Below, in pieces: positions 5,654 through 27,454 of a stretch of DNA of 32,000 bases. Each line of letters begins with the position of its first letter. Position 1 is the stretch's first letter. The notes under the pieces were generated by a model. It was not told the DNA's origin. It ran no database searches and was given only the letters and a program-made list of their open reading frames with translations. This stretch comes from Pseudomonadota bacterium (GTDB lineage Bacteria > Pseudomonadota > Gammaproteobacteria > Burkholderiales > Thiobacillaceae). The translations under genes were made by a program, and so were the position numbers. Location: the NCBI GenBank assembly GCA_021847835.1, contig JAJZPR010000010.1, forward strand, positions 63,718 to 95,717, read 5' to 3'.

Positions 5654-5657
5654 TCCC

Positions 5658-5765: not shown

Positions 5766-5775
5766 ACCCCTGAAC

Positions 5776-7224
<1,449 letters not shown>

Positions 7225-7276
7225 CGCAGCTTGATCGTGGCGAGGCTGCCGCCACAACCCCTCACGCCTTACGCTT

Positions 7277-8599: not shown

Positions 8600-8615
8600 C
8601 GTTTGCTTGTTTGAT

Positions 8616-8646
8616 TGTCATGACAAACCAGAACGTTGTCATGACA
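8616..8646. promoter_or_regulatory. Two perfect 10-bp palindromes TGTCATGACA, candidate enhancer (UAS) sites for the adjacent sigma-54 activator
   Basis: TGTCATGACA occurs at 8616-8625 and 8637-8646, 21 bp centre to centre, about 80-100 bp upstream of the -24 element. A further half-site, ACATGTCA, lies at 8653-8660. Confidence 0.5.
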
Positions 8647-8717
8647 GGAATAACATGTCAAGCTTGGGTGCAAGAGGCGCCCCCTCTATTGTTCGTGCAT
8701 GAACGTCCTGTTCAGAC

Positions 8718-8732
8718 TGGCATGGTAATTGC
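8718..8732 (+). promoter_or_regulatory. Sigma-54 (-24/-12) promoter for sqr
   Basis: TGGCATGGTAATTGC matches TGGCAC-N5-TTGC (GG at 8719-8720, GC at 8731-8732). It lies about 65 bp upstream of the sqr ATG and next to a sigma-54 activator gene. Confidence 0.65.
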
Positions 8733-8796
8733 CCTCAAGTATGCACGCCTGCCAGGCAGGCGCATTCCGACAAACAAAACACGGAGACAAACTGAT

Positions 8797-10065
8797 ATGG
8801 CACACATCGTTATTCTGGGCGCGGGCATCGGCGGCATGACCATGGCCTACGAGATGCGCGAAAACGCCCGCTCGCAGGACAAGGTAACCGTCATTTCCAA
8901 CCTTCCCTACTTCCAGTTCACCCCGTCGAATCCCTGGGTGGCGGTCAACTGGCGCAGCCAGCCCGACATCACCCTGCCGGCGGGGTACTATCTCAACAAG
9001 AAGGGCATTGATTTCATCCCGGTCGGCGCCAAGCGCGTGCACCCCGAAAAAAACCAGATCGAACTGACCGACGGCCGCACGGTGGACTACGATTTCCTGG
9101 TCATCGCCACCGGCCCCAAACTGGCTTTCGACGAAGTGGAGGGCCTGGGCCCGGAAGGACATACCCATTCGATCTGCCAGGTGGAACATGCGGTCAAGGC
9201 CGGCAAAGCCTGGGACGAGTTCGTCAAGGACCCGGGGCACATCGTGGTCGGCGCGGTGCAGGGCGCATCCTGCTACGGCCCGGCCTACGAGTTCGCCATG
9301 ATCATGGACACCGATCTCAAGCGCCGGAAAATCCGCGACAAGGTGCCGATGACCTTCGTTACCGCCGAACCCTACATCGGCCATCTCGGCCTGGGCGGGG
9401 TGGGCGATTCCAAAGGGCTGCTGGAATCGGCCATGCGCGATCGCCACATCAAGTGGATCTGCAACGCCAAGGTGACGAAAGTCGAAGCCGGCAAGATGTT
9501 CGTCGCCGAGCACAACGACAAGGGCGAGGTCATCAAGGAACACGTGCTGGACTTCAAGTACTCCATGATGCTGCCCGCGTTCAAGGGCATCGACGCGGTG
9601 TTCGGCATCGAGGGACTGACCAATCCGCGCGGCTTCATCAGCATCGACCCCTACCAGCGCAATCCCAAGTTCCGGAACATATTTTCCGTCGGCGTCTGCG
9701 TCGCCATCCCGCCGGTCGAAGCCACGCCCGTGCCCACCGGCACGCCCAAGACCGGCTACATGATCGAATCCATGGTGACCGCGACCGCGCACAATATTCG
9801 CGCCATGCTCGACGGCAGGGAACCGGCGGAAAAGGCCACCTGGAATGCGGTCTGCCTGGCCGATTTCGGCGATGGCGGCGCGGCGTTCGTGGCGTTGCCG
9901 CAGATCCCCCCGCGCAACGTCAACTGGTTCAAGGAAGGCAAGTGGGTGCACCTGGCCAAGGTGGCCTTCGAGAAATACTTCATGCGCAAGATGAAGAAAG
10001 GCAGCACCGAGCCGCTGTACGAAAAGTACGTGTTGAGCCTGATGGGGGTGAAAAAGCTCAAATAA
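8797..10065 (+). CDS. sqr: Sulfide:quinone oxidoreductase, type I
   Basis: MAHIVILGAGIGGM (FAD GxGxxG); near-colinear with my recollection of Acidithiobacillus-type SQR. All three conserved Cys contexts are present (HSICQVEH, GASCYGPAYEF, GVCVAIPP), plus the C-terminal WVHLAKVAFEKYF. The start is at 8797, preceded by GGAGA at 8783-8787. Confidence 0.9.
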   Translation: MAHIVILGAGIGGMTMAYEMRENARSQDKVTVISNLPYFQFTPSNPWVAVNWRSQPDITLPAGYYLNKKGIDFIPVGAKRVHPEKNQIELTDGRTVDYDFLVIATGPKLAFDEVEGLGPEGHTHSICQVEHAVKAGKAWDEFVKDPGHIVVGAVQGASCYGPAYEFAMIMDTDLKRRKIRDKVPMTFVTAEPYIGHLGLGGVGDSKGLLESAMRDRHIKWICNAKVTKVEAGKMFVAEHNDKGEVIKEHVLDFKYSMMLPAFKGIDAVFGIEGLTNPRGFISIDPYQRNPKFRNIFSVGVCVAIPPVEATPVPTGTPKTGYMIESMVTATAHNIRAMLDGREPAEKATWNAVCLADFGDGGAAFVALPQIPPRNVNWFKEGKWVHLAKVAFEKYFMRKMKKGSTEPLYEKYVLSLMGVKKLK

Positions 10066-10083
10066 GCCCCCTCGCAACAGGGT

Positions 10084-10111
10084 AAAAACGGCGCCCGCAG
10101 GCGCCGTTTTT
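10084..10111 (+). terminator. Rho-independent terminator after sqr
   Basis: AAAAACGGCGCC-CGCA-GGCGCCGTTTTT, a perfect stem (10088-10095 / 10100-10107) with a T-run. Confidence 0.85.
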
Positions 10112-10205
10112 ATTTGCCGGTTTCCCTTCGGCGCGCAATTGGGCGAAAATTCATATTTCGGCCGGGCATCGGTGTCCGGGCAAGTTTTCAGGAGATGCAG
10201 CCGCC

Positions 10206-10222
10206 ATGCTGCTCATGATCGA
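10206..10222 (+). repeat. attL core (native first 17 nt of trpG)
   Basis: ATGCTGCTCATGATCGA. It is preceded by the native SD AGGAGA (10190-10195) and differs from the other two cores only at position 9 (C versus A, a synonymous Leu change). Confidence 0.85.
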
Positions 10223-10274
10223 AAAGCATGATGCAAATCCGGCAACGTCCTTTCTGATCCGATACCCCATATAA
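10206..10274 (+). pseudogene. Orphaned native trpG start fused to element DNA (22-codon chimeric ORF MLLMIEKHDANPATSFLIRYPI)
   Basis: The native RBS and ATG are followed by 17 nt of trpG and then element sequence, with a stop at 10272-10274. Confidence 0.6.
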
Positions 10275-10341
10275 AACCTAGTGTTTACGCGGAATAGAAG
10301 GCCGTAAACAACCGGCATCATCCGTTGCCATCCGGGAAAAA

Positions 10342-10381
10342 TGGGGGTATCTTTGGGGGTATCAATAGCCCGGTACCCCCA
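10342..10381. repeat. Arm-type repeats TGGGGGTA(T/C)C x3 (two direct, one inverted) abutting the int start
   Basis: Copies at 10342-10351 and 10355-10364, plus an inverted copy GGTACCCCCA at 10372-10381. The same motif recurs at the other end of the element. Confidence 0.6.
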
Positions 10382-10383
10382 TC

Positions 10384-11664
10384 ATGGCACTGACCGACGC
10401 GAGCATCCGCAACAAGAAACCCACAGAGAAGCAATACAAGGTTTCCGATGCTGGCGGGCTGTATCTGCTGGTAAAGCCGAGCGGCGCGAAGCTGTGGCGC
10501 TTGAAGTACCGCATAGATGGCAAGGAAAACGTTTTTGCCATCGGCGAGTATTGCGAAGCCCCGAGGGCTGAGACAGCCGCCGACGCCACCATCCGAAAAG
10601 CATCCGGGCGCTACACCTTGGCCGAAGCCCGGCAGGAACGCGAGCGCTGCAAAGGGCTAATCAGGCACGGCATACACCCGGCGCATAACCGGAAGGCCGA
10701 CGCGGCAAAACGATCCGCCGAAAACGCCAATACCTTCGAGGCCGTTGCGCGGGAATGGATAGCCAAGAAAACGCCCGGATGGACGGCGTACTACCTGCGG
10801 CAAGTCGAGCGATTCCTAGAGGCTGACGTTTTTCCCTATATCGGCAGCCTGCCGATTCGCAACGTGACGGCGGCGCACCTGCTGGAAATCGTGCGGCGTA
10901 TTGAGGGGCGCGGCGCTGCATCCGTGGCCTTGCTGGTGCGGCAATGGGCTTCGGCGATATTCCGCTATGCCGTGGCGACCTTGCGGGCGGATACCGATCC
11001 AGCATCGGCGTTGAAGGGCGCGATTCACCGGCCAAAGATTGAGCATCACAAGCCGCTATCCCGCGACCAAGTGGGCGACTTCGTGAAAGCGCTTGATTCC
11101 TATGGCGGGTATCGGACTACGGTAATCGCCCTGCGCCTGATGCTGCTGACCTTCGTTCGCACCGTGGAGCTGCGGGGAGCGCACTGGACGGAAATCGACC
11201 TTGACCGGGCGGAATGGCGCATCCCCGCTGAGCGCATGAAGATGCGGGAGCCGCACATTGTCCCCTTGTCCCGGCAAGCCGTGGAACTGCTGACGGAACT
11301 GAAAACGCACACCGGCGGGCGTAGTTTTCTGTTCCCCAACTACCGCAACCCGCAAACCTGCATGACGGCAACGACGTTGAATCGAGCGCTGGAACGCATG
11401 GGCTTCAACGGCAAAGACAGCATCGGCTTTTCGGCGCACGGATTCCGGGCAACGGCTTCAACCATGCTGAACGAATTGAGTTTTCGTTCCGAAGTGATCG
11501 AGCGCCAGCTAGCCCATGCCGAACGAAACAAGGTGCGGGCCACCTACAACCAAGGCGAATACATGGAAGAGCGGCGGGCCATGATGCAGCAATGGGCAAA
11601 CCTGACCGACGAAATGGCGAAGAGCGAAAACAAGGTGACACCGATTAAGCAGGCGGCGGCATAA
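10384..11664 (+). CDS. int: Tyrosine integrase, P4-like (N-terminal DUF4102 arm-binding domain)
   Basis: MALTDASIRNKKPTEKQYKVSDAGGLYLLVKPSGAKLWRLKYR is the classic P4-integrase N-terminus. The catalytic region has RTVELRGAHW, HGFRATAST and RATYNQGEY. Confidence 0.92.
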   Translation: MALTDASIRNKKPTEKQYKVSDAGGLYLLVKPSGAKLWRLKYRIDGKENVFAIGEYCEAPRAETAADATIRKASGRYTLAEARQERERCKGLIRHGIHPAHNRKADAAKRSAENANTFEAVAREWIAKKTPGWTAYYLRQVERFLEADVFPYIGSLPIRNVTAAHLLEIVRRIEGRGAASVALLVRQWASAIFRYAVATLRADTDPASALKGAIHRPKIEHHKPLSRDQVGDFVKALDSYGGYRTTVIALRLMLLTFVRTVELRGAHWTEIDLDRAEWRIPAERMKMREPHIVPLSRQAVELLTELKTHTGGRSFLFPNYRNPQTCMTATTLNRALERMGFNGKDSIGFSAHGFRATASTMLNELSFRSEVIERQLAHAERNKVRATYNQGEYMEERRAMMQQWANLTDEMAKSENKVTPIKQAAA

Positions 11665-11757
11665 AGGTTTGCCGCGCCTAGCCCGACGGGGCGAAAACCG
11701 GGACACCCTTGCCCGGCTGGCGTGGCACCCAATCAAGGGCGGCGCGAAAGGGGCGCG

Positions 11758-12717
11758 ATGAATATGGCAAAGGCCTACTCCTGGGGTGATCTGTCCTCAC
11801 AGGATTTAATCCAGCTTCTCGACTTGGTATCCGAGGAAAGGCTAAATGAGGTCTTTTATCCTGTATCAGAGACAAAGCCTGGTATGGGCCTATTCGGCGG
11901 CTGGAAGAATCATAGTTCGCATCCACTGCATCCCGACTATATCCAACCAGTCACTTGGGTTAACGAAGGTCGTGGCCTCCTCGAATTGATGGTGATTGAT
12001 CATGTGGCCGAACGCGAAAGACAAGCTGAACGCGAGAGACAAACCGAACGCGAAAAACAAGCTGAACGCGAGTTACAGGCCGAGCGTGTCAGCAAGCATT
12101 GGCAAGTGATCAAGACGAACAATGCTTTTCAGCTACTGGAGTCCGATGCGAATTTCAAGAAGGCTCATGCTGTCTTTGAGCAGAAGCAGAGAGCTGCGGT
12201 AGATGGCGACCTATACGCACATCCGTTTGCAGAATTTCGTTTTATTGATTCGGTTTCTTCAACTGCCGGATGGTTCCTTCTAACCGACGGCAAGGCTTTC
12301 AACTGGCCGATCCCTGACAAGAAGGCGATAGGCAAGGCGCGCGGCCATGCGTGGGCGATGCTGGATACCTTTGACAAGGATGGCGTCAAACTGCCCGGCT
12401 ATCAGAAACAATTTAGCCTCAAAGCCTTGCTTTCTGAATTGGCCGATCAACTCGATGTGCAATACAAATCAGGTCGCGCTGCATGGGGTGGAAAAAATCG
12501 GCCCTATCGGGTTTTAGTTCAGACCTTGGCTAATGCTTTGCGGCGGCATTTTGGTGAAGTGTCCCCTGAAATCGTGCTGTCGTTGGCTGCGATGGTTAGC
12601 TGCCCATTTACAGAAAAGACGATCAATAACCAGTTGAATGATTCAAAGGAAAAACATCGCCAAGCCTTAGCGAGAGCCTTATTAAGCCAAGGAAAAAATT
12701 CATCCAAATTCGGCTGA
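11758..12717 (+). CDS. Hypothetical protein, 319 aa, with an ERERQAERERQTEREKQAERELQAER charged repeat (element cargo)
   Basis: Long ORF with coding-like, non-shadow composition. GAAAGGGG lies 5-12 nt upstream of ATG 11758. The region is visibly more AT-rich than the neighbouring genes. No family recognised. Confidence 0.65.
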   Translation: MNMAKAYSWGDLSSQDLIQLLDLVSEERLNEVFYPVSETKPGMGLFGGWKNHSSHPLHPDYIQPVTWVNEGRGLLELMVIDHVAERERQAERERQTEREKQAERELQAERVSKHWQVIKTNNAFQLLESDANFKKAHAVFEQKQRAAVDGDLYAHPFAEFRFIDSVSSTAGWFLLTDGKAFNWPIPDKKAIGKARGHAWAMLDTFDKDGVKLPGYQKQFSLKALLSELADQLDVQYKSGRAAWGGKNRPYRVLVQTLANALRRHFGEVSPEIVLSLAAMVSCPFTEKTINNQLNDSKEKHRQALARALLSQGKNSSKFG

Positions 12718-12796
12718 TTTTTTACTTATAGCTGGTTCAATACCAGAAGGATGATGCATCTACCGGCCAGCAACGGCCATTTATGGATCATCCCGA

Positions 12797-13012
12797 ATGA
12801 AACAACTTCCCGAGACCGGTTTCCTGAGATTGCGCCAAATTATCGGCGACCCAAAAGCGGAACCGCCGATCCCCGCGATCATCCCCGTAAAAAAATCCTG
12901 CTGGTGGGAGGGCTGCCGATCCGGTCGTTTCCCCAAGCCTGTGAAACTCGGGCCGCGTGTGACGGCGTGGCCTGTTGAATCCATCCGCGCCCTAGTCGAG
13001 TCTTTGAAATAA
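12797..13012 (+). CDS. alpA: AlpA-family transcriptional regulator / excisionase
   Basis: 71 aa; the FLRLRQI...GRFPKPVKLGPRVTAWPVESIRALV pattern matches AlpA/Xis (FPKPVKLGPR..W). Its position between int and the primase is typical. Confidence 0.8.
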   Translation: MKQLPETGFLRLRQIIGDPKAEPPIPAIIPVKKSCWWEGCRSGRFPKPVKLGPRVTAWPVESIRALVESLK

Positions 13013-13023
13013 GGGGCGCGACC

Positions 13024-13266
13024 ATGACCACAAAAACAACGGGCCGCGCTGGCTGGCACCAGGCGACCCAAGAAACTACACACAAGCAAGATATTACCGC
13101 ACCGACGCGCCAGATAGCCATGCTGTCAGCGCTCAAGCGGCGCATTTGGCTGTTGGGCTATGAGCTTGAAGAGGCCCGCCAGCTTCATGCTGCCCGTGGG
13201 CATTTCTGGAAAGAGGCCGGGGCGTGCATCGCTTTGGCGTTTCTGCGGTTTGGGAGGCTGGTATGA
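13024..13266 (+). CDS. Hypothetical small protein (80 aa)
   Basis: Its stop overlaps the primase start in an ATGA arrangement at 13263-13266, consistent with translational coupling. No family recognised. Confidence 0.5.
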   Translation: MTTKTTGRAGWHQATQETTHKQDITAPTRQIAMLSALKRRIWLLGYELEEARQLHAARGHFWKEAGACIALAFLRFGRLV

Positions 13267-15812
13267 GCAACCGCATCCGTGAAGCGCTGCAATTCATCCC
13301 CGCCGTTGACCGCGAAACCTGGGTGAAGATGGGTATGGCCGTTAAATCCGAGCTTGGGGACGCTGGCTTTGGCTTGTGGGAAGGCTGGAGCCAGCAAGCC
13401 GACACCTTCAACGCCAAAGATGCGCGGGACGTGTGGAAGAGCATCCGCATCAATGGCAAGGTGACGGCGGGGACGCTGTTCCATGAGGCCAAGGCGAACG
13501 GCTGGCGCGACGATGGAACGCACCAGAGGCCGACGCCCGAAGAGCTTGCGGAGCGCCAACGCATCGAGAAATACGCGCGCGCGCGCGAGGAAGCCCGGAC
13601 AGCTTCGGAACGTGTCGAGGCCGCGAAGAAGTCGGCGGCTGTCTGGAAGGCGGCAGCGGAAGCGAAACCCGATCATCCCTATCTTGTCCGCAAGCGCGTT
13701 TCGCCGGTAGCAACCCTGCGCGAGATTGACGCGGGCGCTGCGGCTGCGATCCTGGGCTATGCGCCGAAGTCGAGCGGCGAACCTTTGGCCGGGCGCTTGC
13801 TGGTGGCACCCGTCAAAGTCGGGGACGGGCTTTCGACGCTGGAACTGATCGACCCGGGCGGGCGCAAATCCGCTGTCTATGGCGGCGCGAAGGCGGGCGG
13901 ATATTGGGCGGCGCAACCGCTACACGATGGCGACGGGCTGACCCTGCTTATCGGCGAAGGCGTGGCGACCGTGCTAACGGCGAAGGAATCCAGCGGACAC
14001 CCGACAATCGCGGCGCTGTCGGCTGGCAATCTGCCAGCTGTGGCGAAGGCGATGCGCGAACGCTACCCGTCGGCGGCGCTGGTGATTCTGGCCGATCTGG
14101 TGAAGGCGACCGGCGCACCCGATCCCCATGCAGTCGAGGCGGCGCAATCTGTCGGCGGAAAGCTGGCTATTCCTGACTTCGGTAATAAAGAACGGCCAAA
14201 TAATGCGACCGACTTTAACGACCTGGCGGCGCTATGCGGGACGGAAGCCGTAGGACGCGCCATAGCGAACGCAAGCGAACCGGATAAGGCTTTGCCTCAA
14301 ACCGACCAAGAAAACGCAACAGCGCCAATCCTGACCGGGCAGGTTTGGCCGGAGTCGCAACCGTTGACCGCGAAGGTGGCACCAGAGCCTTACCCAATCG
14401 ACGCGCTACCCAAAACCATCCGGGCGGCGGTGGAAGAGGTGGCGGGCTTCGTCAAGGCACCTTTGCCAATGGTGGCATCGTCGGCACTGGCCGCGCTTTC
14501 GTTGGCAACCCAAGCTCATATCGACGTGAAGCGGGCGGAACGGCTGCAAGGGCCAGTCGGGTTATTCCTGCTGACCATCGCCGATTCGGGCGAGCGGAAA
14601 TCAACCTGCGACGGCTTCTTTACGTCGGCAATCCGCCAGTATCAGGAAGAGCAAGCCGAGGCGATGAAACCGGCAATCAAGGAATATCAAGCCGAGATTG
14701 CCGCATGGGAAGCCGAGCGCGACGGGATATTGTCGGCGATAAAGTGCGCGGCTAAATCAGGCAAGGCGACCAACAATCTGCGGGTCGATCTTGCCGACCT
14801 TCAACGCGACAAGCCGGAAGCGCCGAGAGTGCCGAGGCTGCTGCTGGGCGACGAAACCCCTGAGAACCTTGCGTGGGGGCTTGCCAAGAATTGGCCGTCG
14901 GCGGGCGTGGTATCTGCCGAGGCCGGGATTGTTTTCGGGGCGCACGGCATGAGCAAGGATTCGGTTATGCGGAATCTTGGCCTGTTGAATGTCCTATGGG
15001 ATGGCGGTTCGCATTCCGTCGGGCGGCGGACTTCGGAATCCTTCACAGTCAAAGGGGCGCGGCTGACCGTGGCTTTGCAGATTCAGGAAATGACCCTGCG
15101 GAGTTTCTTCGACCGATCCGGCGGGCTGGCGCGTGGGACGGGCTTCCTTGCCCGGTTTCTGGTGGCGTGGCCTAAATCGACGCAAGGCTTTCGCCCCTTC
15201 ACCGAAGCCCCGCCGAACTGGCCGCACTTGGCCGCATTCCATCAACGCATCGCGGCGATTCTGGCGAACCCGGTTCCTATTGATGATGACGGGGCGCTAT
15301 CCCCCGCATTGATGATGCTGGCACCGGAAGCAAAGGCGGCATGGGTAGCCTTCCACGATGCAATCGAGAGCGAACTAGCCAGCGGTGGCGAGCTATACGA
15401 CGTGCGGGACGTGGCGAGTAAATCCGCCGACAACGCGGCACGGCTGGGGGCGTTGTTCCAGATATTCGAGCACGGCATGGGCGGCGCTGTCGGGCTGGAA
15501 TGTTTCGAGTCGGCAAGCCGGATTGCGGCATGGCACCTGAACGAATCACGGCGATTCTTTGGTGAGCTTGCGCTACCTGCTGAACTGGCGGACGCGGCGC
15601 GGCTGGATAGCTGGCTGGTCGATTATTGCCAGCGAGAGCAAAGGCATTCCGTTAGCAAGAATCACGTCCGCCAGCATGGGCCATTGCGGGACGGGGCGCG
15701 ACTTGATGCGGCGATCCGCGAGCTTGCCGAGCTTGAACGGCTGCGGCTGCTGAAGGAAGGAAAGCGTCTGACCATCCAACTCAATCCGGCATTAGCAGGG
15801 GTGACAGCATGA
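13263..15812 (+). CDS. Primase/helicase-type replication protein (PriCT-2 N-domain, Toprim, DUF3987 C-domain)
   Basis: ALQFIPAVDRETWVKMGMAVKSELGDAGFGLWEGWSQQ (PriCT-2-like); LLIGEGVATVLT...ALVILADL...TDFNDL (Toprim); YPIDALP...LFLLTIADSGERKST... (DUF3987). The start was chosen at 13263, after GGGAGG. Confidence 0.88.
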   Translation: MSNRIREALQFIPAVDRETWVKMGMAVKSELGDAGFGLWEGWSQQADTFNAKDARDVWKSIRINGKVTAGTLFHEAKANGWRDDGTHQRPTPEELAERQRIEKYARAREEARTASERVEAAKKSAAVWKAAAEAKPDHPYLVRKRVSPVATLREIDAGAAAAILGYAPKSSGEPLAGRLLVAPVKVGDGLSTLELIDPGGRKSAVYGGAKAGGYWAAQPLHDGDGLTLLIGEGVATVLTAKESSGHPTIAALSAGNLPAVAKAMRERYPSAALVILADLVKATGAPDPHAVEAAQSVGGKLAIPDFGNKERPNNATDFNDLAALCGTEAVGRAIANASEPDKALPQTDQENATAPILTGQVWPESQPLTAKVAPEPYPIDALPKTIRAAVEEVAGFVKAPLPMVASSALAALSLATQAHIDVKRAERLQGPVGLFLLTIADSGERKSTCDGFFTSAIRQYQEEQAEAMKPAIKEYQAEIAAWEAERDGILSAIKCAAKSGKATNNLRVDLADLQRDKPEAPRVPRLLLGDETPENLAWGLAKNWPSAGVVSAEAGIVFGAHGMSKDSVMRNLGLLNVLWDGGSHSVGRRTSESFTVKGARLTVALQIQEMTLRSFFDRSGGLARGTGFLARFLVAWPKSTQGFRPFTEAPPNWPHLAAFHQRIAAILANPVPIDDDGALSPALMMLAPEAKAAWVAFHDAIESELASGGELYDVRDVASKSADNAARLGALFQIFEHGMGGAVGLECFESASRIAAWHLNESRRFFGELALPAELADAARLDSWLVDYCQREQRHSVSKNHVRQHGPLRDGARLDAAIRELAELERLRLLKEGKRLTIQLNPALAGVTA

Positions 15813-16357
15813 GCCTGCTATCGGCGCTGATCCAAAAACGTGAAACCCGGAAGGCTGCTACTGCTATTCCTGCTATTTCTGCTACTCAACCGAAGGAAGG
15901 GGCGGCAACAGTAGCAAGAATAGCAACAGTAGCAGTAGCAAACCCCACGGATGCAAAAACGACCGATGCTGTGACTTCGTGGGGCTGGCTGTTGCACTTC
16001 GCCGACCGTGAGCCGCTGGAAGTCTATTGCAACCCGGACGCGACCCATGCCGAGATACTGGAACGCTATCCCGATGCACTGGCAGCGGAGCCGATACCGG
16101 AGCGCACCAGGCGAACGCCGACCGAAGCCGAGGCGGCGGAACTGCGGGCGCTGGTGCAAACCATTGGCGAGGCTGAGCAATGGACGGCTGACGAAATCGA
16201 ATGGGCAACGGCTGGGGCGCTGGCCGATCCTGACGGGGCGCTGATCTGCTTTCAAGATATAGCGAGAGGCTTCAATGCAGCCGTTGAGAACAACGATAGA
16301 ACAGTGAAGAGAGTCCTGAAAACAGGCATCAATCAGGAGGCAAATAATGACTGGTAA
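15809..16357 (+). CDS. Hypothetical protein (182 aa)
   Basis: Its ATG overlaps the primase stop (ATGA at 15809-15812). The 5' part contains the iteron-like inverted array. No family recognised. Confidence 0.6.
   Translation: MSLLSALIQKRETRKAATAIPAISATQPKEGAATVARIATVAVANPTDAKTTDAVTSWGWLLHFADREPLEVYCNPDATHAEILERYPDALAAEPIPERTRRTPTEAEAAELRALVQTIGEAEQWTADEIEWATAGALADPDGALICFQDIARGFNAAVENNDRTVKRVLKTGINQEANNDW
15854..15940. repeat. Imperfect ~33-bp inverted repeat built from CTGCTA/TAGCAG pentamer-hexamer iterations (candidate ori)
   Basis: Left arm GCTGCTACTGCTATTCCTGCTATTTCTGCTACT (15854-15886); right arm AGTAGCAAGAATAGCAACAGTAGCAGTAGCA (15910-15940); a 23-nt spacer separates them. Confidence 0.6.
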
Positions 16358-17039
16358 CAGTACCCAAACAGATAAACGGGCGACCAAACCGAAGAAACCG
16401 GCGGCACCGAAAGCGGAGGCATTCCCGCGAAAAGCGATCCCCCTAAAATCAGGCCCGAGCGCCGACGAGAAAGGGCGGGTCTATGCGAGCCTCATAACCT
16501 CCCCCGAGCTTGCCGCGCATCGTGTCATAGGGATGATGCAGCCGAAGAACATTGCGGATGAAATCGACACCCCCACGATGCTGGAAACCCTGCGCGATCA
16601 AGCGGCGGCGGTACAGCGTGGCGACCTGTCCCATGCCGAAGCGATGCTGATAAATCAGGCGTCGGCGCTGCAAGCCCTGTTTGTGCGGCTTTCTGAAAGA
16701 GCCATGGAGCAAGCCCATATGCCTAACCTTGAAGGCTTCATGCGGATGGCACTGCGGGCGCAATCGCAATGCCGGGCGACTTTGGAAACGCTGGCAACGA
16801 TCAAGAATCCGCCGATTGTTTACGCGAAGCAGGCCAACTTTGCGGCGGGTCATCAGCAAGTCAACAACGGCACACCTGACCCTACGCGGGCGCGAGAAAT
16901 CGAAAACGAGCAATCCCAACTATCAGGGGGAAACCATGAGCTATTATCGGACGCCCGAGCATCGGGCGAAGCAAGCCGAACGAATCCGACGCTGGAAACC
17001 CTGGGAGAAATCGACCGGGCCGAAATCCGAAGAGGGTAA
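16347..17039 (+). CDS. Hypothetical protein (230 aa), Lys/Pro-rich N-terminus
   Basis: AGGAGG at 16334-16339 precedes ATG 16347, which overlaps the end of the upstream ORF. Composition is coding-like. Confidence 0.6.
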   Translation: MTGNSTQTDKRATKPKKPAAPKAEAFPRKAIPLKSGPSADEKGRVYASLITSPELAAHRVIGMMQPKNIADEIDTPTMLETLRDQAAAVQRGDLSHAEAMLINQASALQALFVRLSERAMEQAHMPNLEGFMRMALRAQSQCRATLETLATIKNPPIVYAKQANFAAGHQQVNNGTPDPTRAREIENEQSQLSGGNHELLSDARASGEASRTNPTLETLGEIDRAEIRRG

Positions 17040-17139
17040 GCGGCGATCCGCGATGCGCGGGTATAAGGGCGGAACCCGTAAGCTGTTGCGTGAACTGGCG
17101 CGGCTGTTACGGGAGCAAGCCGAAGCATTTAGGCGCTAA
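16936..17139 (+). CDS. Hypothetical small basic protein (67 aa, MSYYRTPEHRAKQAERIRRWKPWEKSTGPKSEEGK...)
   Basis: Internal start of the 152-aa track ORF, with AGGGGGA at 16925-16931 5 nt upstream. It overlaps the 3' end of the 230-aa ORF by 104 nt in another frame. Confidence 0.5.
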   Translation: MSYYRTPEHRAKQAERIRRWKPWEKSTGPKSEEGKRRSAMRGYKGGTRKLLRELARLLREQAEAFRR

Positions 17140-17145
17140 CGACGG

Positions 17146-17397
17146 TTAGCGGTTATTTTTCCAGGAAGCGCCATTAGCCCCGCAATTCCGCTCTAGGCCG
17201 TTCATCACCGCGCTGGCATCGTATTCGCCGCTTCTGAAGCCATCTACTGATGCTTGAACGTAGGCCCTGCAATTTATTGGTGCGCCGAAGTCCTCGCCAT
17301 ACTCGGCTTCCTTGTTGTCGTCAAAAGCGGAACCCCAATGGGCAACAGCAAAGATAATTCCCGCGACGATCCATCCAGCGCTGCAATCGCTTTCCAT
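17146..17397 (-). CDS. Small membrane-anchored or secreted Cys-containing protein (83 aa)
   Basis: The only minus-strand gene in the element. A strong SD (GGGAAAGAGGG) lies just upstream of the ATG. Hydrophobic N-terminus GWIVAGIIFAVAHW, with Cys at positions 5, 43 and 72. Confidence 0.55.
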   Translation of the reverse strand: MESDCSAGWIVAGIIFAVAHWGSAFDDNKEAEYGEDFGAPINCRAYVQASVDGFRSGEYDASAVMNGLERNCGANGASWKNNR

Positions 17398-17552
17398 TCC
17401 CTCTTTCCCTTCCGTTTTGTTTTTTTGTGAGCTTCCTGTCGGCTGTTTTTAGTTGCATCTTCAAGCTACGGCTTGGTGGGCGACGGTTTGAGGCGCAGCC
17501 GATATGGGGGACAATAACCGCTTTTCCTGGATTCGGTTTCGACTCGCCCGGC

Positions 17553-17592
17553 TTGGGTATCAATCGAAAAAGGGGGTATTCATGGGGGTATC
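17553..17592. repeat. Arm-type repeats at the right end of the element (TTGGGTATCAAT, GGGGGTATT, TGGGGGTATC)
   Basis: Same motif family as 10342-10381. Lies 50-90 bp upstream of the core at 17645. Confidence 0.55.
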
Positions 17593-17644
17593 TGCGAGCA
17601 ATGTCTGGTCAGCGATCCATGTAAATCAATAGGATGCAAGCATT

Positions 17645-17661
17645 ATGCTGCTAATGATCGA
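17645..17661 (+). repeat. Inter-copy core (intact attP-type junction)
   Basis: ATGCTGCTAATGATCGA, flanked on the left by the element's right end and on the right by its left end. Confidence 0.85.
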
Positions 17662-17780
17662 AAAGCATGATGCAAATCCGGCAACGTCCTTTCTGATCCG
17701 ATACCCCATATAAAACCTAGTGTTTACGCGGAATAGAAGGCCGTAAACAACCGGCATCATCCGTTGCCATCCGGGAAAAA

Positions 17781-17820
17781 TGGGGGTATCTTTGGGGGTA
17801 TCAATAGCCCGGTACCCCCA
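17781..17820. repeat. Arm-type repeats TGGGGGTA(T/C)C x3, copy 2
   Basis: Same as 10342-10381, shifted by 7,439. Confidence 0.6.
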
Positions 17821-17822
17821 TC

Positions 17823-19103
17823 ATGGCACTGACCGACGCGAGCATCCGCAACAAGAAACCCACAGAGAAGCAATACAAGGTTTCCGATGCTGGCGGGCTG
17901 TATCTGCTGGTAAAGCCGAGCGGCGCGAAGCTGTGGCGCTTGAAGTACCGCATAGATGGCAAGGAAAACGTTTTTGCCATCGGCGAGTATTGCGAAGCCC
18001 CGAGGGCTGAGACAGCCGCCGACGCCACCATCCGAAAAGCATCCGGGCGCTACACCTTGGCCGAAGCCCGGCAGGAACGCGAGCGCTGCAAAGGGCTAAT
18101 CAGGCACGGCATACACCCGGCGCATAACCGGAAGGCCGACGCGGCAAAACGATCCGCCGAAAACGCCAATACCTTCGAGGCCGTTGCGCGGGAATGGATA
18201 GCCAAGAAAACGCCCGGATGGACGGCGTACTACCTGCGGCAAGTCGAGCGATTCCTAGAGGCTGACGTTTTTCCCTATATCGGCAGCCTGCCGATTCGCA
18301 ACGTGACGGCGGCGCACCTGCTGGAAATCGTGCGGCGTATTGAGGGGCGCGGCGCTGCATCCGTGGCCTTGCTGGTGCGGCAATGGGCTTCGGCGATATT
18401 CCGCTATGCCGTGGCGACCTTGCGGGCGGATACCGATCCAGCATCGGCGTTGAAGGGCGCGATTCACCGGCCAAAGATTGAGCATCACAAGCCGCTATCC
18501 CGCGACCAAGTGGGCGACTTCGTGAAAGCGCTTGATTCCTATGGCGGGTATCGGACTACGGTAATCGCCCTGCGCCTGATGCTGCTGACCTTCGTTCGCA
18601 CCGTGGAGCTGCGGGGAGCGCACTGGACGGAAATCGACCTTGACCGGGCGGAATGGCGCATCCCCGCTGAGCGCATGAAGATGCGGGAGCCGCACATTGT
18701 CCCCTTGTCCCGGCAAGCCGTGGAACTGCTGACGGAACTGAAAACGCACACCGGCGGGCGTAGTTTTCTGTTCCCCAACTACCGCAACCCGCAAACCTGC
18801 ATGACGGCAACGACGTTGAATCGAGCGCTGGAACGCATGGGCTTCAACGGCAAAGACAGCATCGGCTTTTCGGCGCACGGATTCCGGGCAACGGCTTCAA
18901 CCATGCTGAACGAATTGAGTTTTCGTTCCGAAGTGATCGAGCGCCAGCTAGCCCATGCCGAACGAAACAAGGTGCGGGCCACCTACAACCAAGGCGAATA
19001 CATGGAAGAGCGGCGGGCCATGATGCAGCAATGGGCAAACCTGACCGACGAAATGGCGAAGAGCGAAAACAAGGTGACACCGATTAAGCAGGCGGCGGCA
19101 TAA
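17823..19103 (+). CDS. int: Tyrosine integrase, P4-like (copy 2)
   Basis: Translation identical to 10384-11664. Confidence 0.92.
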   Translation: MALTDASIRNKKPTEKQYKVSDAGGLYLLVKPSGAKLWRLKYRIDGKENVFAIGEYCEAPRAETAADATIRKASGRYTLAEARQERERCKGLIRHGIHPAHNRKADAAKRSAENANTFEAVAREWIAKKTPGWTAYYLRQVERFLEADVFPYIGSLPIRNVTAAHLLEIVRRIEGRGAASVALLVRQWASAIFRYAVATLRADTDPASALKGAIHRPKIEHHKPLSRDQVGDFVKALDSYGGYRTTVIALRLMLLTFVRTVELRGAHWTEIDLDRAEWRIPAERMKMREPHIVPLSRQAVELLTELKTHTGGRSFLFPNYRNPQTCMTATTLNRALERMGFNGKDSIGFSAHGFRATASTMLNELSFRSEVIERQLAHAERNKVRATYNQGEYMEERRAMMQQWANLTDEMAKSENKVTPIKQAAA

Positions 19104-19196
19104 AGGTTTGCCGCGCCTAGCCCGACGGGGCGAAAACCGGGACACCCTTGCCCGGCTGGCGTGGCACCCAATCAAGGGCGGCGCGAAAGGGGCGCG

Positions 19197-20156
19197 ATGA
19201 ATATGGCAAAGGCCTACTCCTGGGGTGATCTGTCCTCACAGGATTTAATCCAGCTTCTCGACTTGGTATCCGAGGAAAGGCTAAATGAGGTCTTTTATCC
19301 TGTATCAGAGACAAAGCCTGGTATGGGCCTATTCGGCGGCTGGAAGAATCATAGTTCGCATCCACTGCATCCCGACTATATCCAACCAGTCACTTGGGTT
19401 AACGAAGGTCGTGGCCTCCTCGAATTGATGGTGATTGATCATGTGGCCGAACGCGAAAGACAAGCTGAACGCGAGAGACAAACCGAACGCGAAAAACAAG
19501 CTGAACGCGAGTTACAGGCCGAGCGTGTCAGCAAGCATTGGCAAGTGATCAAGACGAACAATGCTTTTCAGCTACTGGAGTCCGATGCGAATTTCAAGAA
19601 GGCTCATGCTGTCTTTGAGCAGAAGCAGAGAGCTGCGGTAGATGGCGACCTATACGCACATCCGTTTGCAGAATTTCGTTTTATTGATTCGGTTTCTTCA
19701 ACTGCCGGATGGTTCCTTCTAACCGACGGCAAGGCTTTCAACTGGCCGATCCCTGACAAGAAGGCGATAGGCAAGGCGCGCGGCCATGCGTGGGCGATGC
19801 TGGATACCTTTGACAAGGATGGCGTCAAACTGCCCGGCTATCAGAAACAATTTAGCCTCAAAGCCTTGCTTTCTGAATTGGCCGATCAACTCGATGTGCA
19901 ATACAAATCAGGTCGCGCTGCATGGGGTGGAAAAAATCGGCCCTATCGGGTTTTAGTTCAGACCTTGGCTAATGCTTTGCGGCGGCATTTTGGTGAAGTG
20001 TCCCCTGAAATCGTGCTGTCGTTGGCTGCGATGGTTAGCTGCCCATTTACAGAAAAGACGATCAATAACCAGTTGAATGATTCAAAGGAAAAACATCGCC
20101 AAGCCTTAGCGAGAGCCTTATTAAGCCAAGGAAAAAATTCATCCAAATTCGGCTGA
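19197..20156 (+). CDS. Hypothetical 319-aa coiled-coil cargo protein (copy 2)
   Basis: Identical to 11758-12717. Confidence 0.65.
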   Translation: MNMAKAYSWGDLSSQDLIQLLDLVSEERLNEVFYPVSETKPGMGLFGGWKNHSSHPLHPDYIQPVTWVNEGRGLLELMVIDHVAERERQAERERQTEREKQAERELQAERVSKHWQVIKTNNAFQLLESDANFKKAHAVFEQKQRAAVDGDLYAHPFAEFRFIDSVSSTAGWFLLTDGKAFNWPIPDKKAIGKARGHAWAMLDTFDKDGVKLPGYQKQFSLKALLSELADQLDVQYKSGRAAWGGKNRPYRVLVQTLANALRRHFGEVSPEIVLSLAAMVSCPFTEKTINNQLNDSKEKHRQALARALLSQGKNSSKFG

Positions 20157-20235
20157 TTTTTTACTTATAGCTGGTTCAATACCAGAAGGATGATGCATCT
20201 ACCGGCCAGCAACGGCCATTTATGGATCATCCCGA

Positions 20236-20451
20236 ATGAAACAACTTCCCGAGACCGGTTTCCTGAGATTGCGCCAAATTATCGGCGACCCAAAAGCGGA
20301 ACCGCCGATCCCCGCGATCATCCCCGTAAAAAAATCCTGCTGGTGGGAGGGCTGCCGATCCGGTCGTTTCCCCAAGCCTGTGAAACTCGGGCCGCGTGTG
20401 ACGGCGTGGCCTGTTGAATCCATCCGCGCCCTAGTCGAGTCTTTGAAATAA
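20236..20451 (+). CDS. alpA: AlpA-family regulator / excisionase (copy 2)
   Basis: Identical to 12797-13012. Confidence 0.8.
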   Translation: MKQLPETGFLRLRQIIGDPKAEPPIPAIIPVKKSCWWEGCRSGRFPKPVKLGPRVTAWPVESIRALVESLK

Positions 20452-20462
20452 GGGGCGCGACC

Positions 20463-25083: not shown

Positions 25084-25100
25084 ATGCTGCTAATGATCGA
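25084..25100 (+). repeat. attR core = the functional start of trpG
   Basis: ATGCTGCTAATGATCGA, followed by native trpG sequence (CAACTACGAC...). Confidence 0.85.
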
Positions 25101-25653
25101 CAACTACGACAGCTTCACCTACAACCTCGTGCAGTATTTCGGCGAGCTGGGCGAAGACGTGAAGGTGATGCGCAACGACGAGATCGACCTTGCCGGCGTG
25201 GCGGCCTTGAAGCCCGATCACATCGTCATCTCGCCGGGGCCCTGCACGCCCACCGAGGCGGGCATTTCCGTGCCCTTGATCCGCGAATTCGCCGGCAAGG
25301 TGCCCATCCTCGGCGTGTGCCTCGGCCACCAGAGCATCGGCCAGGCCTTCGGCGGCAGGATCGTGCACGCGAAAGCGCTCATGCACGGCAAGACCTCCAT
25401 GATCCGCCACAAGGACGTGGGCGTGTTCCGCGGCCTGCCCAATCCTTTCCGCGCCACGCGCTACCACTCGCTGGTGATCGAGCGCGAGTCGCTGCCCGAT
25501 TGCCTGGAAATCACCGCCTGGACCGACGACGGCGAGATCATGGGCGTGCGCCACAAAACGCTGGCGGTGGAAGGCGTGCAGTTCCACCCCGAGTCCATCC
25601 TCACCGAACACGGCCACGCCATGCTGGCCAACTTCCTCAAGGGGCATGCTTGA
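25084..25653 (+). CDS. trpG: Anthranilate synthase component II (glutamine amidotransferase)
   Basis: [26 protein letters not shown] (catalytic Cys) and GVQFHPES. The first 17 nt and all upstream DNA are element-derived. Confidence 0.92.
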
Positions 25654-26669
25654 TGCAGTACAAGGACATTCTCAGCCGCTTGCTCGACCGCCATGATCTG
25701 CCGCGCGAAACCATGCTGTCCGCCATGCATGCGCTCATGGGGGGGGAATGGACGCCTGCCCAGATAGCGGGATTCCTGATCGCGTTGCGCATGAAGGAAG
25801 AAAGCGTTACTGAAATCGCGGCGGGTGCCCAGGTGATGCGCGAACTGTCGCTCAAGGTGCCCCTGGCTGGCGTCGAGCATCTGGTCGATACCTGCGGCAC
25901 CGGCGGCGATGGCGCGCATACCTTCAATATCTCGACTGCAGCCGCTTTCGTGGCGGCAGCCTGCGGCGCGCATGTTGCCAAGCATGGCGGGCGTTCTGTG
26001 TCATCCACATCAGGCAGCGCCGACGTGCTGGAAGCGCTCGGCGTCAACGTCAACCTGACGCCGGAGCAGGTCGCCCGGGCAGTCAGGGAAATCGGCGTCG
26101 GCTTCATGTTCGCGCCCAACTACCATGCTGCCATGAAGCATGCCGCGCCGGTGCGGCGCGAACTGGGCGTGCGCACCTTGTTCAACATGCTGGGGCCGCT
26201 GACCAACCCCGCTGCCGCACCCAACCAGGTGCTGGGCGTGTTCAGCAAAAACCTGACCGGCACGCTGGCCGAAGTGCTGAAGGAACTGGGCAGCCAGCAT
26301 GTGCTGGTCGTCAATGCCGAGGAAGGGCTGGACGAAATCAGCCTGGCCAGCCCCACCTACGTTGCCGAATTGAAGGAAGGGCGGGTATTCGAATACCTCC
26401 TCGAACCCGGGGCCTTCGGCCTGCCACAAGTCGCCGCCACCGAACTGGTGGTCAACGGCAAGGATGAAGCCGTCGCCATGCTCAAGGCCGCGCTGGAAAA
26501 CCGCCATCCCGGCGCCTCTGCCATCGTCACGCTCAACGCTGGCGCAGCCGTGTATGTCTCCGGACGGGCGGACAGCCTGGCCGACGGCGTCGCCCAGGCC
26601 CGGGCCGCCATCGAGTCCGGCGAGGCGAGCGCCAAGTTGGCCGCCTACACGGCCTTTACGCAAGCATGA
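25653..26669 (+). CDS. trpD: Anthranilate phosphoribosyltransferase
   Basis: Its ATG overlaps the trpG stop (TGATG at 25651-25655). Motifs: [36 protein letters not shown]. The start was chosen inside the 450-aa track ORF. Confidence 0.92.
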
Positions 26670-27454
26670 GCGACATTCTCACCAAAATCCTGGCCACCAA
26701 GCGCGAAGAAATCGCCGCCGGACTGAAACAGGTTTCGCTTGCCGAAATGCAGGCGCGCGCCGCCGTGCAGGAGCCGCCGCGCGATTTCGTCGGCGCCATC
26801 CGCGCCAAAATCGCCGCCGGCAAGCCGGCGGTCATCGCCGAGATCAAGAAGGCCAGCCCCAGCAGGGGCGTGCTGCGCGCGGACTTCCATCCGGCCGCGA
26901 TCGCCGCCAGCTATGAAGCGGGCGGCGCGGCCTGTCTGTCGGTGCTGACCGACCGGCAGTATTTCCAGGGCAGCCCCGAGTATCTCGAAGAGGCGCGCGC
27001 CGCCTGTTCGCTGCCGGTGCTGCGCAAGGATTTCATCATCGACGCCTACCAGGTGTACGAGGCGCGCGCCATGGGGGCGGACTGCATCCTGCTCATCGTG
27101 GCGGCGCTGAAGCTGGACGAGATGCAGGCGCTCGAAGCGCTGGCGCACGAACTCGGCATGGCCGTGCTGGTGGAGTCGCACGACGCCGAAGAACTCGACG
27201 CCGCCCTGCAGCTGAAAACCCCGCTGCAAGGCATCAACAACCGCAACCTGCGCACCTTCGAGGTCAGCCTCGACACGACGCTGGGACTTTTGTCCAAAAT
27301 CGGCCGCGACCGCGTCGTCATCACCGAATCGGGCATCCTGGCCCCGGCCGACGTCGCCCGCATGCGCGCCCACGACGTCCATGCCTTCCTGGTCGGCGAA
27401 GCCTTCATGCGTGCAGACAACCCTGGCGCGGAGCTTGCCCGGCTGTTCGCCTGA
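26666..27454 (+). CDS. trpC: Indole-3-glycerol phosphate synthase
   Basis: [53 protein letters not shown]. Its ATG overlaps the trpD stop. Confidence 0.92.

Follow-up and report, generated by a model that had tools for sequence, protein, structure and literature searches.

A 7.4-kb integrative element with a predicted iteron replicon at the trpG start codon of a Thiobacillaceae bacterium: likeness to minimal phage satellites

Introduction

What kind of mobile element is built around an integrase, an AlpA-type regulator, and a replication protein, with no virion or transfer genes of its own, and how could such an element travel? This question is raised by a 7.4-kb unit (positions 10206-17644) in a 32,000-nucleotide stretch of contig JAJZPR010000010.1 from a Thiobacillaceae bacterium, probably a Thiobacillus (GenBank assembly GCA_021847835.1), hereafter the window, whose numbering is used throughout; related loci are designated by L numbers. 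An earlier note on this DNA had listed nine open reading frames (ORFs) in the unit, all of which were found in their places, and had viewed it as a discrete, mobile, self-replicating mini-element. That view is upheld by an empty site in another genome, an attP-type junction, a free circle formed by a relative, and a primase/origin module shared with capsid-encoding relatives. What the note had missed are the tandem copies, the trpG insertion site, the RF02996 RNA, the iteron origin, and the arm-type repeats of the integrase (Int).

The 7.4-kb unit is a real, discrete integrative mobile element, far beyond what chance would produce, because it is bounded by a 17-bp direct repeat, is precisely absent from a near-identical genome, and has a backbone that recurs in dozens of genomes. 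It is read here, with moderate confidence, as an integrative, self-replicating "hitcher" of the minimal-satellite type, similar to the PICMIs and presumably dependent on a helper.

Two tandem units in the start of trpG

The repeat unit is 7,439 bp long, and positions 10206-17644 make up exactly one unit. The window contains two perfect head-to-tail copies, copy A (10223-17661) and copy B (17662-25100, + strand, with all features at +7439); positions 10215-17661 match those 7,439 bp downstream base for base, with zero mismatches (100% identity), and all ORFs are intact in both copies. The element, with a G+C content of 58% against 64-65% in the flanks, is bounded by a 17-bp core, ATGCTGCTnATGATCGA, which consists of the trpG start codon and five further codons and is present three times (10206-10222, 17645-17661, and 25084-25100). 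The attL core (10206..10222, + strand; ATGCTGCTCATGATCGA) retains the host C at position 9. The middle core (17645..17661, + strand; ATGCTGCTAATGATCGA) forms an attP-type junction between the right end of copy A and the left end of copy B, and the attR core (25084..25100, + strand; ATGCTGCTAATGATCGA) provides the trpG start codon and codons 2-6.

The ORF that begins at the third core encodes TrpG/PabA (TIGR00566, 283 bits) and opens the host trpG-trpD-trpC operon (25084..27454, + strand), recognized by TIGR00566, by the TrpD and TrpC domains, and by the gene order at the empty site. That site is found in a contig of a metagenome-assembled genome (L092, GCA_040960215.1) that encodes an identical TrpG protein and has the upstream Pyr_redox_2 gene followed directly by trpG. 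It holds a single core, the same 17-mer with C (ATGCTGCTCATGATCGA), between flanks that are 100% identical to those of the window over 600 nt on the left and 99.97% identical over 3 kb on the right. A single core within near-identical flanks indicates that the site is polymorphic and that the insertion was precise. The distribution of the host C (attL) and the element A (middle and right cores) at core position 9 places the strand exchange within the last 8 bp, and the sole change in trpG is a synonymous one in a Leu codon (Leu3, CTC to CTA). In five other trpG-integrated relatives, the differences are limited to the left 9 nt of the core, the right half (ATGATCGA) being invariant; the lengths of the trpG-integrated elements range from 6,755 to 8,658 bp.

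TrpG remains intact, with the element's right end supplying a new ribosome-binding site; an AGGA-type site for trpG comes from the element's right end in each trpG-integrated relative. The native trpG leader (10066-10205), from which the trp operon is now parted by 14.9 kb of element, drives together with its ribosome-binding site a 22-codon remnant ORF (MLLMIEKHDANPATSFLIRYPI) and points into int (10066-10383). Because the target is the start codon of an essential biosynthetic operon, the insertion changes the wiring to its left and right: int now lies in the path of the trpG leader, and the expression of trpGDC must come from the element. There is no tRNA gene within the window, and a tRNA target was rejected in favor of trpG.

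Junctions, free circles, and the reality of the tandem

In the short-read assembly (k = 141) of sample ERZ27237050, the element forms a separate 7,447-bp contig, unitig L091, which corresponds exactly to window positions 10215-17661; the trpG flank is in another contig, which starts one k-mer ahead of the divergence point. For a unitig of a de Bruijn graph to begin just past the variable base of the core and to stop where the core stops, it must have two predecessors and two successors. The boundaries of L091 therefore mean that reads joining the right end, the core, and the left end (the attP-type junction) exist beside attL and attR. By this graph reasoning, the attP-type junction is real in the ERZ27237050 reads, where either a chromosomal dimer or an integrated copy accompanied by circles would fit.

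A close relative, with an orf230 product 83% identical to the one in the window, is found as a circle. It was assembled in five samples, as one contig in each (L095-L099), and these contigs are circular permutations, 100% identical to one another, of a closed molecule of 6,938 bp; they have different start points and no host flank, and they end in terminal overlaps of 55, 55, 55, 30, and 0, which are the k-mer sizes of the assemblers. The ends of a further relative, L003, also join up, since the overlapping orf230 and orf67 frames both run on across its junction.

Free circles also bear on the tandem itself, which might not be physical: given one integrated copy plus free circles, or a mixed population, an assembler could have unrolled a cycle in the graph. 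This explanation, which is doubtful though to be taken seriously, accords with the 100% identity of the two copies, with the collapse of the identical element to a single core-bounded unitig in the short-read assembly, and with the absence of tandem copies from all 80 genome loci. It has to contend with a single contig that holds attL, the middle junction, and attR, and with an independent IMG/VR contig (L087, IMGVR_UViG_3300044940_000479, positions 1-11715) in which a related int/alpA/DUF3987-primase element of 5,858 bp occurs twice in tandem, the copies being identical over ~5.4 kb and then diverging. An attP-type junction is required in the reads either way.

Replication protein and predicted origin

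The 849-aa replication protein (13263..15812, + strand) contains the PriCT_2 (71 bits), Toprim_3 (30 bits), and DUF3987 (320 bits; YfjI-type, helicase-like) domains, and PHROGs labels its two halves as DNA primase and DNA helicase. The predicted origin (15856..15940) is located within the 5' part of orf182, 44-128 nt past the primase stop codon. It consists of two arrays (15856-15886 and 15910-15940), inverted relative to each other, each of which holds four TGCTA(C/T) hexamers, with a 23-bp G/A-rich spacer between them. Within the window, the two-hexamer iteron pattern is matched only at the origin, 8 times where 0 matches are expected. This arrangement recurs, equally far from the primase stop codon, in about 60 relatives, where the iteron word varies by lineage (TGCTAC/T, TGCTAA, TGCGAC, or TGCTACA).

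The two arms change together. In an alignment of 24 sequences compared with 500 shuffles, complementary cells made up 86.5% of the total (74.7% in shuffles), double changes numbered 81 (36 in shuffles), and the covariation score was 0.296 (0.098 in shuffles); 0/500 shuffles reached the observed values, and the signal collapsed when the partners were slid. At hexamer position 4, the switch from T to G affects all eight hexamers simultaneously, and the trinucleotide spacers are unpaired, as expected of protein-recognized iterons and not of a simple stem; the reading of the inverted repeat as a plain hairpin is disfavored on the same grounds.

The C terminus of the primase follows the iteron word. 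In relatives with TGCTAA iterons (L007, L009, L011, and L038), primase residues 1-770 are mostly 84-99% identical to those of the window protein (71% for residues 1-120 in L011), whereas residues 771-849 are only 56-58% identical. In relatives with TGCTAC/TGCTAT iterons, distant ones included, residues 771-849 are mostly 75-95% identical; in a few of them, including those with the word extended to TGCTACA, the value is 63-68%. Since the tail tracks the iteron word independently of the rest of the protein, its last ~80 residues (approximately 771-849) are predicted to form the origin-specificity domain. Searches of the primase C terminus against PDB sequences and profiles returned only noise. 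If the tail binds the origin, the protein would unite the functions of initiator, primase, and helicase. Such a union is known from P4 alpha and SaPI Rep, and in P4 alpha it is the C-terminal domain that binds the origin iterons. The element is thus predicted from its sequence to carry its own self-contained iteron replicon, and the four iteron variants, paired with matching primase tails, offer a compact model of an origin and an initiator that switch specificity together.

These data bear on whether the unit could be what is left of a decayed prophage or island, inert and unable to excise, replicate, or move. Such a remnant would explain the lack of structural genes and the several ORFs without an assigned function. 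It would not be expected to have an empty counterpart site in a near-identical genome, an attP-type junction demanded by the assembly graph, intact ORFs in both copies, a backbone conserved across thousands of homologs, a relative in the form of a circle, or a primase C terminus that coevolves with the iterons. Decay to immobility, which the earlier note had named among the findings that would speak against its proposal, is accordingly highly improbable.

Relatives of the element

Among the candidates scored, 2,759 primase homologs have E values of ≤1e-20, with the closest ones in Thiobacillus, Rhodocyclaceae, and Accumulibacter; relatives of the element, to judge from these sequences, number in the thousands in Betaproteobacteria. 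No description of this family in Betaproteobacteria was found in the papers searched. The comparison of genomes with primase homologs, which the earlier note had proposed for telling conserved from variable parts, revealed a conserved backbone with variable slots after int and at the right end.

Two IMG/VR loci combine the replication module (DUF3987, orf182-like gene, and inverted iterons) with virion genes: L085 (4446-9544) adds HK97 capsid, HNH, and gp10-like genes, and L130 (3493-7303) adds HK97 capsid and prohead protease (S78) genes. These capsid-forming, PICI-like relatives tie the module to bona fide satellite-type elements. An iteron-pattern scan of IMG/VR gave 47 matches, among which L130, with its inverted arrangement, was the one examined, the others being assumed to be unrelated coding repeats; a scan of IMG/VR with a single primase sequence gave no match. 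In deposited phage/satellite and plasmid collections, similarity is limited to integrase and primase fragments. More distant DUF3987/YfjI proteins (34-39% identical) are encoded on conjugative Legionella plasmids. Further contigs of ~7 kb (P0002, P0003, and P0013) were set aside as mere fragments without informative ends.

As the earlier note had stated, the unit itself has no capsid, terminase, tail, relaxase, or type IV secretion genes, there being no matches to such models (nor to defense models) in Pfam, PHROGs, NCBIfam, or PADLOC. An alternative to carriage by a phage is that the unit is an integrative mobilizable element (IME) with an oriT in the right end or in the iteron region that is nicked by the relaxase of a coresident plasmid or integrative conjugative element. 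The combination of int, alpA, and replicase genes is the core of PIMEs and other IMEs too, the plasmid pH8NP1, which carries an orf230 module (see below), is typed MOBV, and the Legionella plasmids with distant DUF3987/YfjI proteins are conjugative. Relaxase, TraJ-like, coupling-protein, and Trb genes are nevertheless absent from the unit by the same four libraries, and no oriT-like feature was identified, an oriT search being impossible without a known helper. The nearest relatives with extra genes carry capsid and not transfer genes. PIMEs, moreover, are about 20 kb in size and have tra/trb genes and an IncP-like oriT, and identity with them was rejected. Mobilization by conjugation is therefore rather improbable.

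Integrase, arm-type repeats, and AlpA

Pfam confirmed the integrase, AlpA, and PriCT-2/Toprim/DUF3987 assignments of the earlier note, that of AlpA marginally. The 426-aa tyrosine integrase (10384..11664, + strand) has the P4/CP4-57-type domain architecture (Arm-DNA-bind_3, Phage_int_M, and Phage_integrase, 77 bits). Every locus with an Int at least 76% identical and with the right flank present sits at trpG, so the trpG start site is the specific target of this integrase lineage. Where the integrase is a different one, relatives are inserted at other places, for instance L004 after mnmE and L005 beside tRNA-Sec. In L005 (4642-4733), the primase is 92% identical and homologs of orf319, orf230, orf67, and orf83 are present, yet Int is only 45% identical; such a different integrase on a like backbone shows that integrase modules are swapped while the backbone stays constant.

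Candidate Int arm-type sites flank the cores. On the P' side (10262..10380), GGGGTAT occurs at 10344 and 10356, its inverted form ATACCCC at 10262, and GGTACCCCC at 10372; these sites overlap a sigma-70-like int promoter at 10325-10353. The P-side repeats (17555..17644) comprise GGGGTAT at 17573 and 17585 and GGGTATC at 17555, in a region that also contains the AGGA ribosome-binding site for trpG. Within the 32-kb window, GGGGTAT is confined to the arms around the cores; each arm has two copies and each element one inverted copy, which makes these repeats good candidates for arm-type integrase sites.

The small AlpA-family DNA-binding regulator or excisionase (12797..13012, + strand) matches PF05930 marginally, with 21.2 bits against a cutoff of 21; its orthologs in relatives carry precomputed PF05930 or HTH_17 matches. 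The alpA gene is the first in the alpA-to-orf67 operon, with an inverted repeat, CTGGTTCAATACCAG, upstream of it at 12732.

An int-alpA RNA ahead of an exchangeable gene

Directly after the int stop codon is an int-alpA RNA (Rfam RF02996; 11671..11739, + strand), a three-helix structured RNA that scores 76.5 bits against a gathering threshold of 35.8 and matches the model over its full length (1-71); a second match is found in copy B (19110-19178), and further ones in L002, L003, L005, L009, and L038. In all 15 relatives in which the core of this RNA was identified, it is on the same strand as int and lies ahead of the ORF that comes next after int. Its helices hold within the family, with 97% of the cells paired and three compensatory pairs in helix 1.

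The RNA is followed by a GGCGCG-AAAGGG(G)-CGCG element (in the window, GGCGCG-AAAGGGG-CGCG at 11741..11757, + strand) with a Shine-Dalgarno-like loop, located immediately before the ATG of the cargo ORF; in relatives, the ATG of a locus-variable ORF comes within 0-6 nt. The slot ORFs that follow belong to the orf319 family, to the MMDFPAYVPAA family (L003, L019, L021, and L038), or to several others. The Shine-Dalgarno element is 88% paired and is kept before unrelated ORFs, but it shows no covariation and is considered a sequence feature only. Rfam types RF02996 as a small RNA of unknown function. Because the RNA always stands ahead of a variable ORF, with the conserved Shine-Dalgarno element between the two, the simplest reading is that it acts in cis as the 5' leader of an exchangeable cargo gene and is not a free small RNA, which would give this Rfam motif a concrete function.

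In the window, the slot is occupied by orf319 (11758..12717, + strand), an ORF of low G+C content (49%) with an internal 18-bp repeat region, which encodes an all-helical orphan protein. It has only 15 homologs among 5.8 billion proteins, and those in L005, L006, and L009 occupy the same slot. Its AlphaFold model, all-helical and of acceptable quality (pLDDT 73, pTM 0.66), had no Foldseek match in PDB or BFVD (best E value, 0.27). The 18-bp in-frame repeat of orf319 (12008-12086, and at +7439) encodes ERERQAERERQTEREKQAERELQAER and is the most variable part of the alignment of the 16-member family.

The second variable slot, at the right end, contains orf83 (17146..17397, - strand), the product of which has a hydrophobic N terminus; copies that are 80-81% identical are found at the right ends of L005 and L038. 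A terminator-like hairpin (17134..17151) separates it from the convergent orf67. Right-end cargo in relatives includes a Rap1a-type protein (type VI immunity family; L160, 5545-5880), a secreted SNase homolog (L008, 15272-15841), a Schlafen/AlbA_2 ATPase with a weak PADLOC match (L010, 14025-15317), and PEP-CTERM and Adhesin_E-like proteins. The idea of defense cargo was rejected, as no recognized defense system was found among the slot ORFs of the relatives.

Small ORFs around the primase gene

The chain of overlapping stop and start codons reported in the earlier note is present: orf80 and the primase gene, as well as the primase gene and orf182, overlap in ATGA, and orf182 and orf230 overlap by 11 nt. 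Of these, orf80 (13024..13266, + strand) is conserved in 11 loci and is the positional counterpart of up1 of the PICMIs. In orf182 (15809..16357, + strand), codons 16-44 coincide with the iterons, and the conserved domain spans residues ~50-150. Its family forms 718 representative clusters, many of which align only to residues ~50-150, past the iteron-encoded stretch, which argues that orf182 is a real gene; it is found at 44/84 loci. An extra ORF of 588-689 aa without Pfam matches is inserted between the orf182-like and orf230-like genes in L007 (12940-15009), L158 (2977-4869), and L159 (4322-6088).

The product of orf230 (16347..17039, + strand) belongs to an unnamed family with 4,276 homologs, and its AlphaFold model is too poor for a fold search (pLDDT 51), with a helical-hairpin core and disordered tails. 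The 3' end of orf230 is overlapped in another frame by orf67 (16936..17139, + strand), which encodes a small basic protein and is conserved with orf230 at 16 loci; the two form a portable module. Naming such ORFs by profile and structure searches, as the earlier note had proposed, gave no function from any search. The products of orf319, orf80, orf182, orf230, orf67, and orf83 have no match in Pfam, PHROGs, NCBIfam, or PADLOC, and PDB sequence and profile searches with those of orf230, orf319, and orf182 gave only noise. A weak match to NGO1945_C (E value, 0.009), seen in 6/38 members of the orf230 family scanned, was dismissed.

The contexts of the orf230/orf67 module are diverse. In the provirus L103 (IMGVR_UViG_2528768215_000001, 6634-9236), which contains an int-alpA RNA and has a DnaB/HTH_36 replicon in place of the DUF3987 primase, homologs of orf230 and orf67 come directly after Mu F-like and DUF2213 head-morphogenesis genes. 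Homologs of orf230 (38% identical) are also encoded on small RepA/ParA plasmids of cultured Arctic Polaromonas, pW9NP1 (L156, 4047-4655) and pH8NP1 (L157, 7883-8700); in the latter, typed MOBV, the homolog is followed by an overlapping 68-aa ORF. The idea that orf230 encodes a scaffold-like head protein, suggested by the neighbors in L103, was down-weighted after the plasmid homologs came to light. The presence of the module in a phage-like element and on plasmids, together with its absence from deposited phages, makes it more likely that orf230 and orf67 serve mobile elements in general, for example in establishment or maintenance, than that their role is capsid specific. The proposal of the earlier note that the unassigned ORFs are candidates for helper hijacking or interference can thus be retained only in part: orf182 contains the origin and travels with the primase gene, orf230 and orf67 occur on plasmids, and orf319 sits in a swappable slot.

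The plasmid homologs are also part of the case for an integrative plasmid (episome) without a dedicated helper, alternating between the chromosome and an autonomous 7-kb circle and spreading by vertical inheritance plus nonspecific routes such as transformation, vesicles, and generalized transduction. The closed circles of 6,938 bp, which were seen in five samples and lack host flanks, the complete replicon with an iteron origin, the module common to the RepA/ParA plasmids pW9NP1 and pH8NP1, and the absence of the family from phage genome collections all fit such a plasmid, as does the recovery of VEIME-like concatemers in vesicle fractions (PMC9618062). What makes it unlikely, if still a serious competitor, is that scans with the hidden Markov model (HMM) libraries recognized no partition or copy-control genes in the element, that the AlpA-led operon and the narrow size range of 6.8-8.7 kb match helper-induced satellites, and that the same primase/origin module is found in capsid-encoding, satellite-like elements.

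Other features of the host flank

Two features were noted upstream of the insertion. An ORF near the start of the window contains at least 11 copies of an 18-bp tandem repeat (128-405; GGTTCCGGCGGCGGCATG-like) that encodes a Gly/Ser/Met-rich repeat protein. A gene at 7277-8599 (- strand), 1.6 kb from attL, codes for a sigma-54 activator with PAS and Sigma54_activat domains and a C-terminal Fis-type HTH_8 domain (PF02954). This is the sole PF02954 match in the vicinity. PF02954 is the "fis" marker of the PICMI search model, so this neighbor could trigger a false automated PICMI call.

Discussion

As a minimal satellite, the element would operate as follows. The integrase inserts the 7,439-bp circle into the 17-bp trpG core. 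In the integrated state, the int-alpA RNA and the Shine-Dalgarno element would express the slot ORF after int, here orf319. In response to a helper, AlpA would switch on int and the alpA-orf80-pri-orf182-orf230-orf67 operon; the primase-helicase would then bind the iterons via its C-terminal domain and amplify the excised circle to concatemers, which would be packaged in full-size helper-phage capsids and transduced. Packaging by a helper phage is suggested by the lack of capsid, packaging, and conjugation genes, and the tandem dimer could have been left behind by multicopy delivery or by a further round of integration, at attL or attR. The satellite reading gains from the occurrence of the same DUF3987/orf182-like/iteron module in the HK97-capsid relatives L085 and L130 and from the tandem pair in the IMG/VR contig L087.

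Several observations weigh against it. The helper-phage transduction step is proposed by analogy with the PICMIs and VEIMEs, and circles in unselected metagenomes are explained no less well by a plasmid-like steady state than by an induced satellite. No pac or cos site and no TerS or Rpp-like gene was recognized in the element, and a consensus scan of its right end found no sigma-70-like outward promoter for trpG. Among 50,697 deposited phage genomes, there is no homolog of orf182, orf230, or orf67, and a profile scan of IMG/VR for orf230 gave no match, while its homologs sit on the Polaromonas RepA/ParA plasmids. The copy number of the tandem may, as discussed above, have been inferred by the assembler, a doubtful but not negligible prospect that is independent of the lifestyle readings.

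Taken together, the data allow a broader reading, put forward tentatively, in which the element represents a very large undescribed family of PICMI-like satellites in environmental Betaproteobacteria (Thiobacillus, Rhodocyclaceae, Accumulibacter, and Nitrosomonadaceae). Such a family would be characterized by concatemer transduction with tandem-array footprints, primase-tail/iteron swaps, an RNA cargo leader, and an orf230/orf67 module for establishment or helper exploitation that is shared with plasmids. If these elements are helper dependent, minimal satellites would reach from marine Vibrio to the bacteria predominant in wastewater, groundwater, and sulfur- or nitrogen-cycling communities.

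Comparison with known systems

By description, the E. coli K-12 element CP4-57 shares with the window element the trio of integrase, AlpA, and DUF3987 (YfjI) genes. Its core gene order is intA, alpA, yfjI, and plasmid homologs of the window primase are annotated as "YfjI family protein." CP4-57 differs in being much larger and in residing at the tmRNA gene (ssrA). Islands at tmRNA sites that are moved by jumbo phages were rejected as the family of this element after comparison with the published description.

The likeness to P4 consists in an integrase of the same broad type, a multifunctional primase-helicase, and an AlpA-type regulator. The domains of the replication protein differ (PriCT-2/Toprim/DUF3987 here), and psu, delta, sid, epsilon, and cos are missing from the element; in agreement with the earlier note, neither PHROGs nor Pfam gave a match to P4 late genes, including those of the psu/delta/sid type.

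Gram-negative PICIs (PMC6092414) have the same order of int, alpA, and pri-rep genes and an origin that adjoins the replication gene. In contrast to them, the window element lacks terS, ppi, rpp, cpm, and capsid genes and falls below the typical PICI size; no PICI-type packaging or redirection module was found with four HMM libraries, with PDB profiles, or, for orf319, with Foldseek. The capsid-forming cf-PICIs (10.1101/2022.09.08.507074) resemble the relatives L085 and L130 with their HK97 capsid, prohead protease, and HNH genes, whereas the window lacks capsid, protease, and head-completion genes of its own.

The earlier note had suggested an uncharacterized kind of element. That cannot be maintained, as minimal satellites with int, AlpA, and DUF3987-primase genes have already been described as PICMIs (PMC10803314) and VEIMEs (PMC9618062). 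VEIMEs are virion-encapsidated elements of marine plankton, small, many with integrase, AlpA, and primase/helicase genes, and found as concatemers (PMC9618062). By description, the window element is like them in being a small integrative element with int, AlpA, and primase genes and without a major capsid gene; it differs in that VEIMEs are defined by recovery from virions and have marine hosts, whereas this element is known from sequence.

PICMIs of Vibrionaceae, 6.1 kb in size and with 17-bp repeats, combine int and AlpA genes with a small ORF, a primase of the DUF3987 or DUF5906 kind, and variable accessory genes, and have no capsid-remodeling genes; they replicate as concatemers and are packaged as 8-mers (PMC10803314). 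Their defining features are an integrase gene (PF00589 or serine recombinase models), AlpA (PF05930 or PF12728), a primase with DUF3987 (PF13148) or DUF5906, and integration beside fis, for which the search model demands a Fis match that then passes through an identity filter. The element described here has the same tyrosine integrase, AlpA, and DUF3987-type primase genes, a small ORF between alpA and the primase gene (up1 in PICMIs, orf80 here), a similarly small size (7.4 kb), 17-bp direct repeats, variable accessory slots, and circular or concatemeric forms, and likewise has no capsid, packaging, or remodeling genes.

The differences begin with the insertion site, which is the trpG start codon here and the end of fis in PICMIs, and the host, which belongs to Betaproteobacteria and not to Vibrionaceae. 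PICMIs have an int-overlapping gene, iolg, that is needed for excision and is present in 21/35 subfamilies (PMC10803314); in the window, there is no such gene, and a 93-nt gap with the int-alpA RNA separates int from orf319, although in some relatives, such as L004, int is overlapped by 4 nt. Extra conserved genes (orf182, orf230, and orf67) follow the primase gene here. Helper induction and concatemer transduction are known for PICMIs, whereas the present element is known from its sequence alone.

PICMIs are the best functional match for this element, and VEIMEs the broader class to which it can be compared. The remaining difference concerns copy number: the window contains two tandem copies, whereas the authors of the PICMI study never saw more than one copy per genome and asked how elements delivered as concatemers end up in a single copy (PMC10803314). 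The tandem copy at trpG bears directly on that question.

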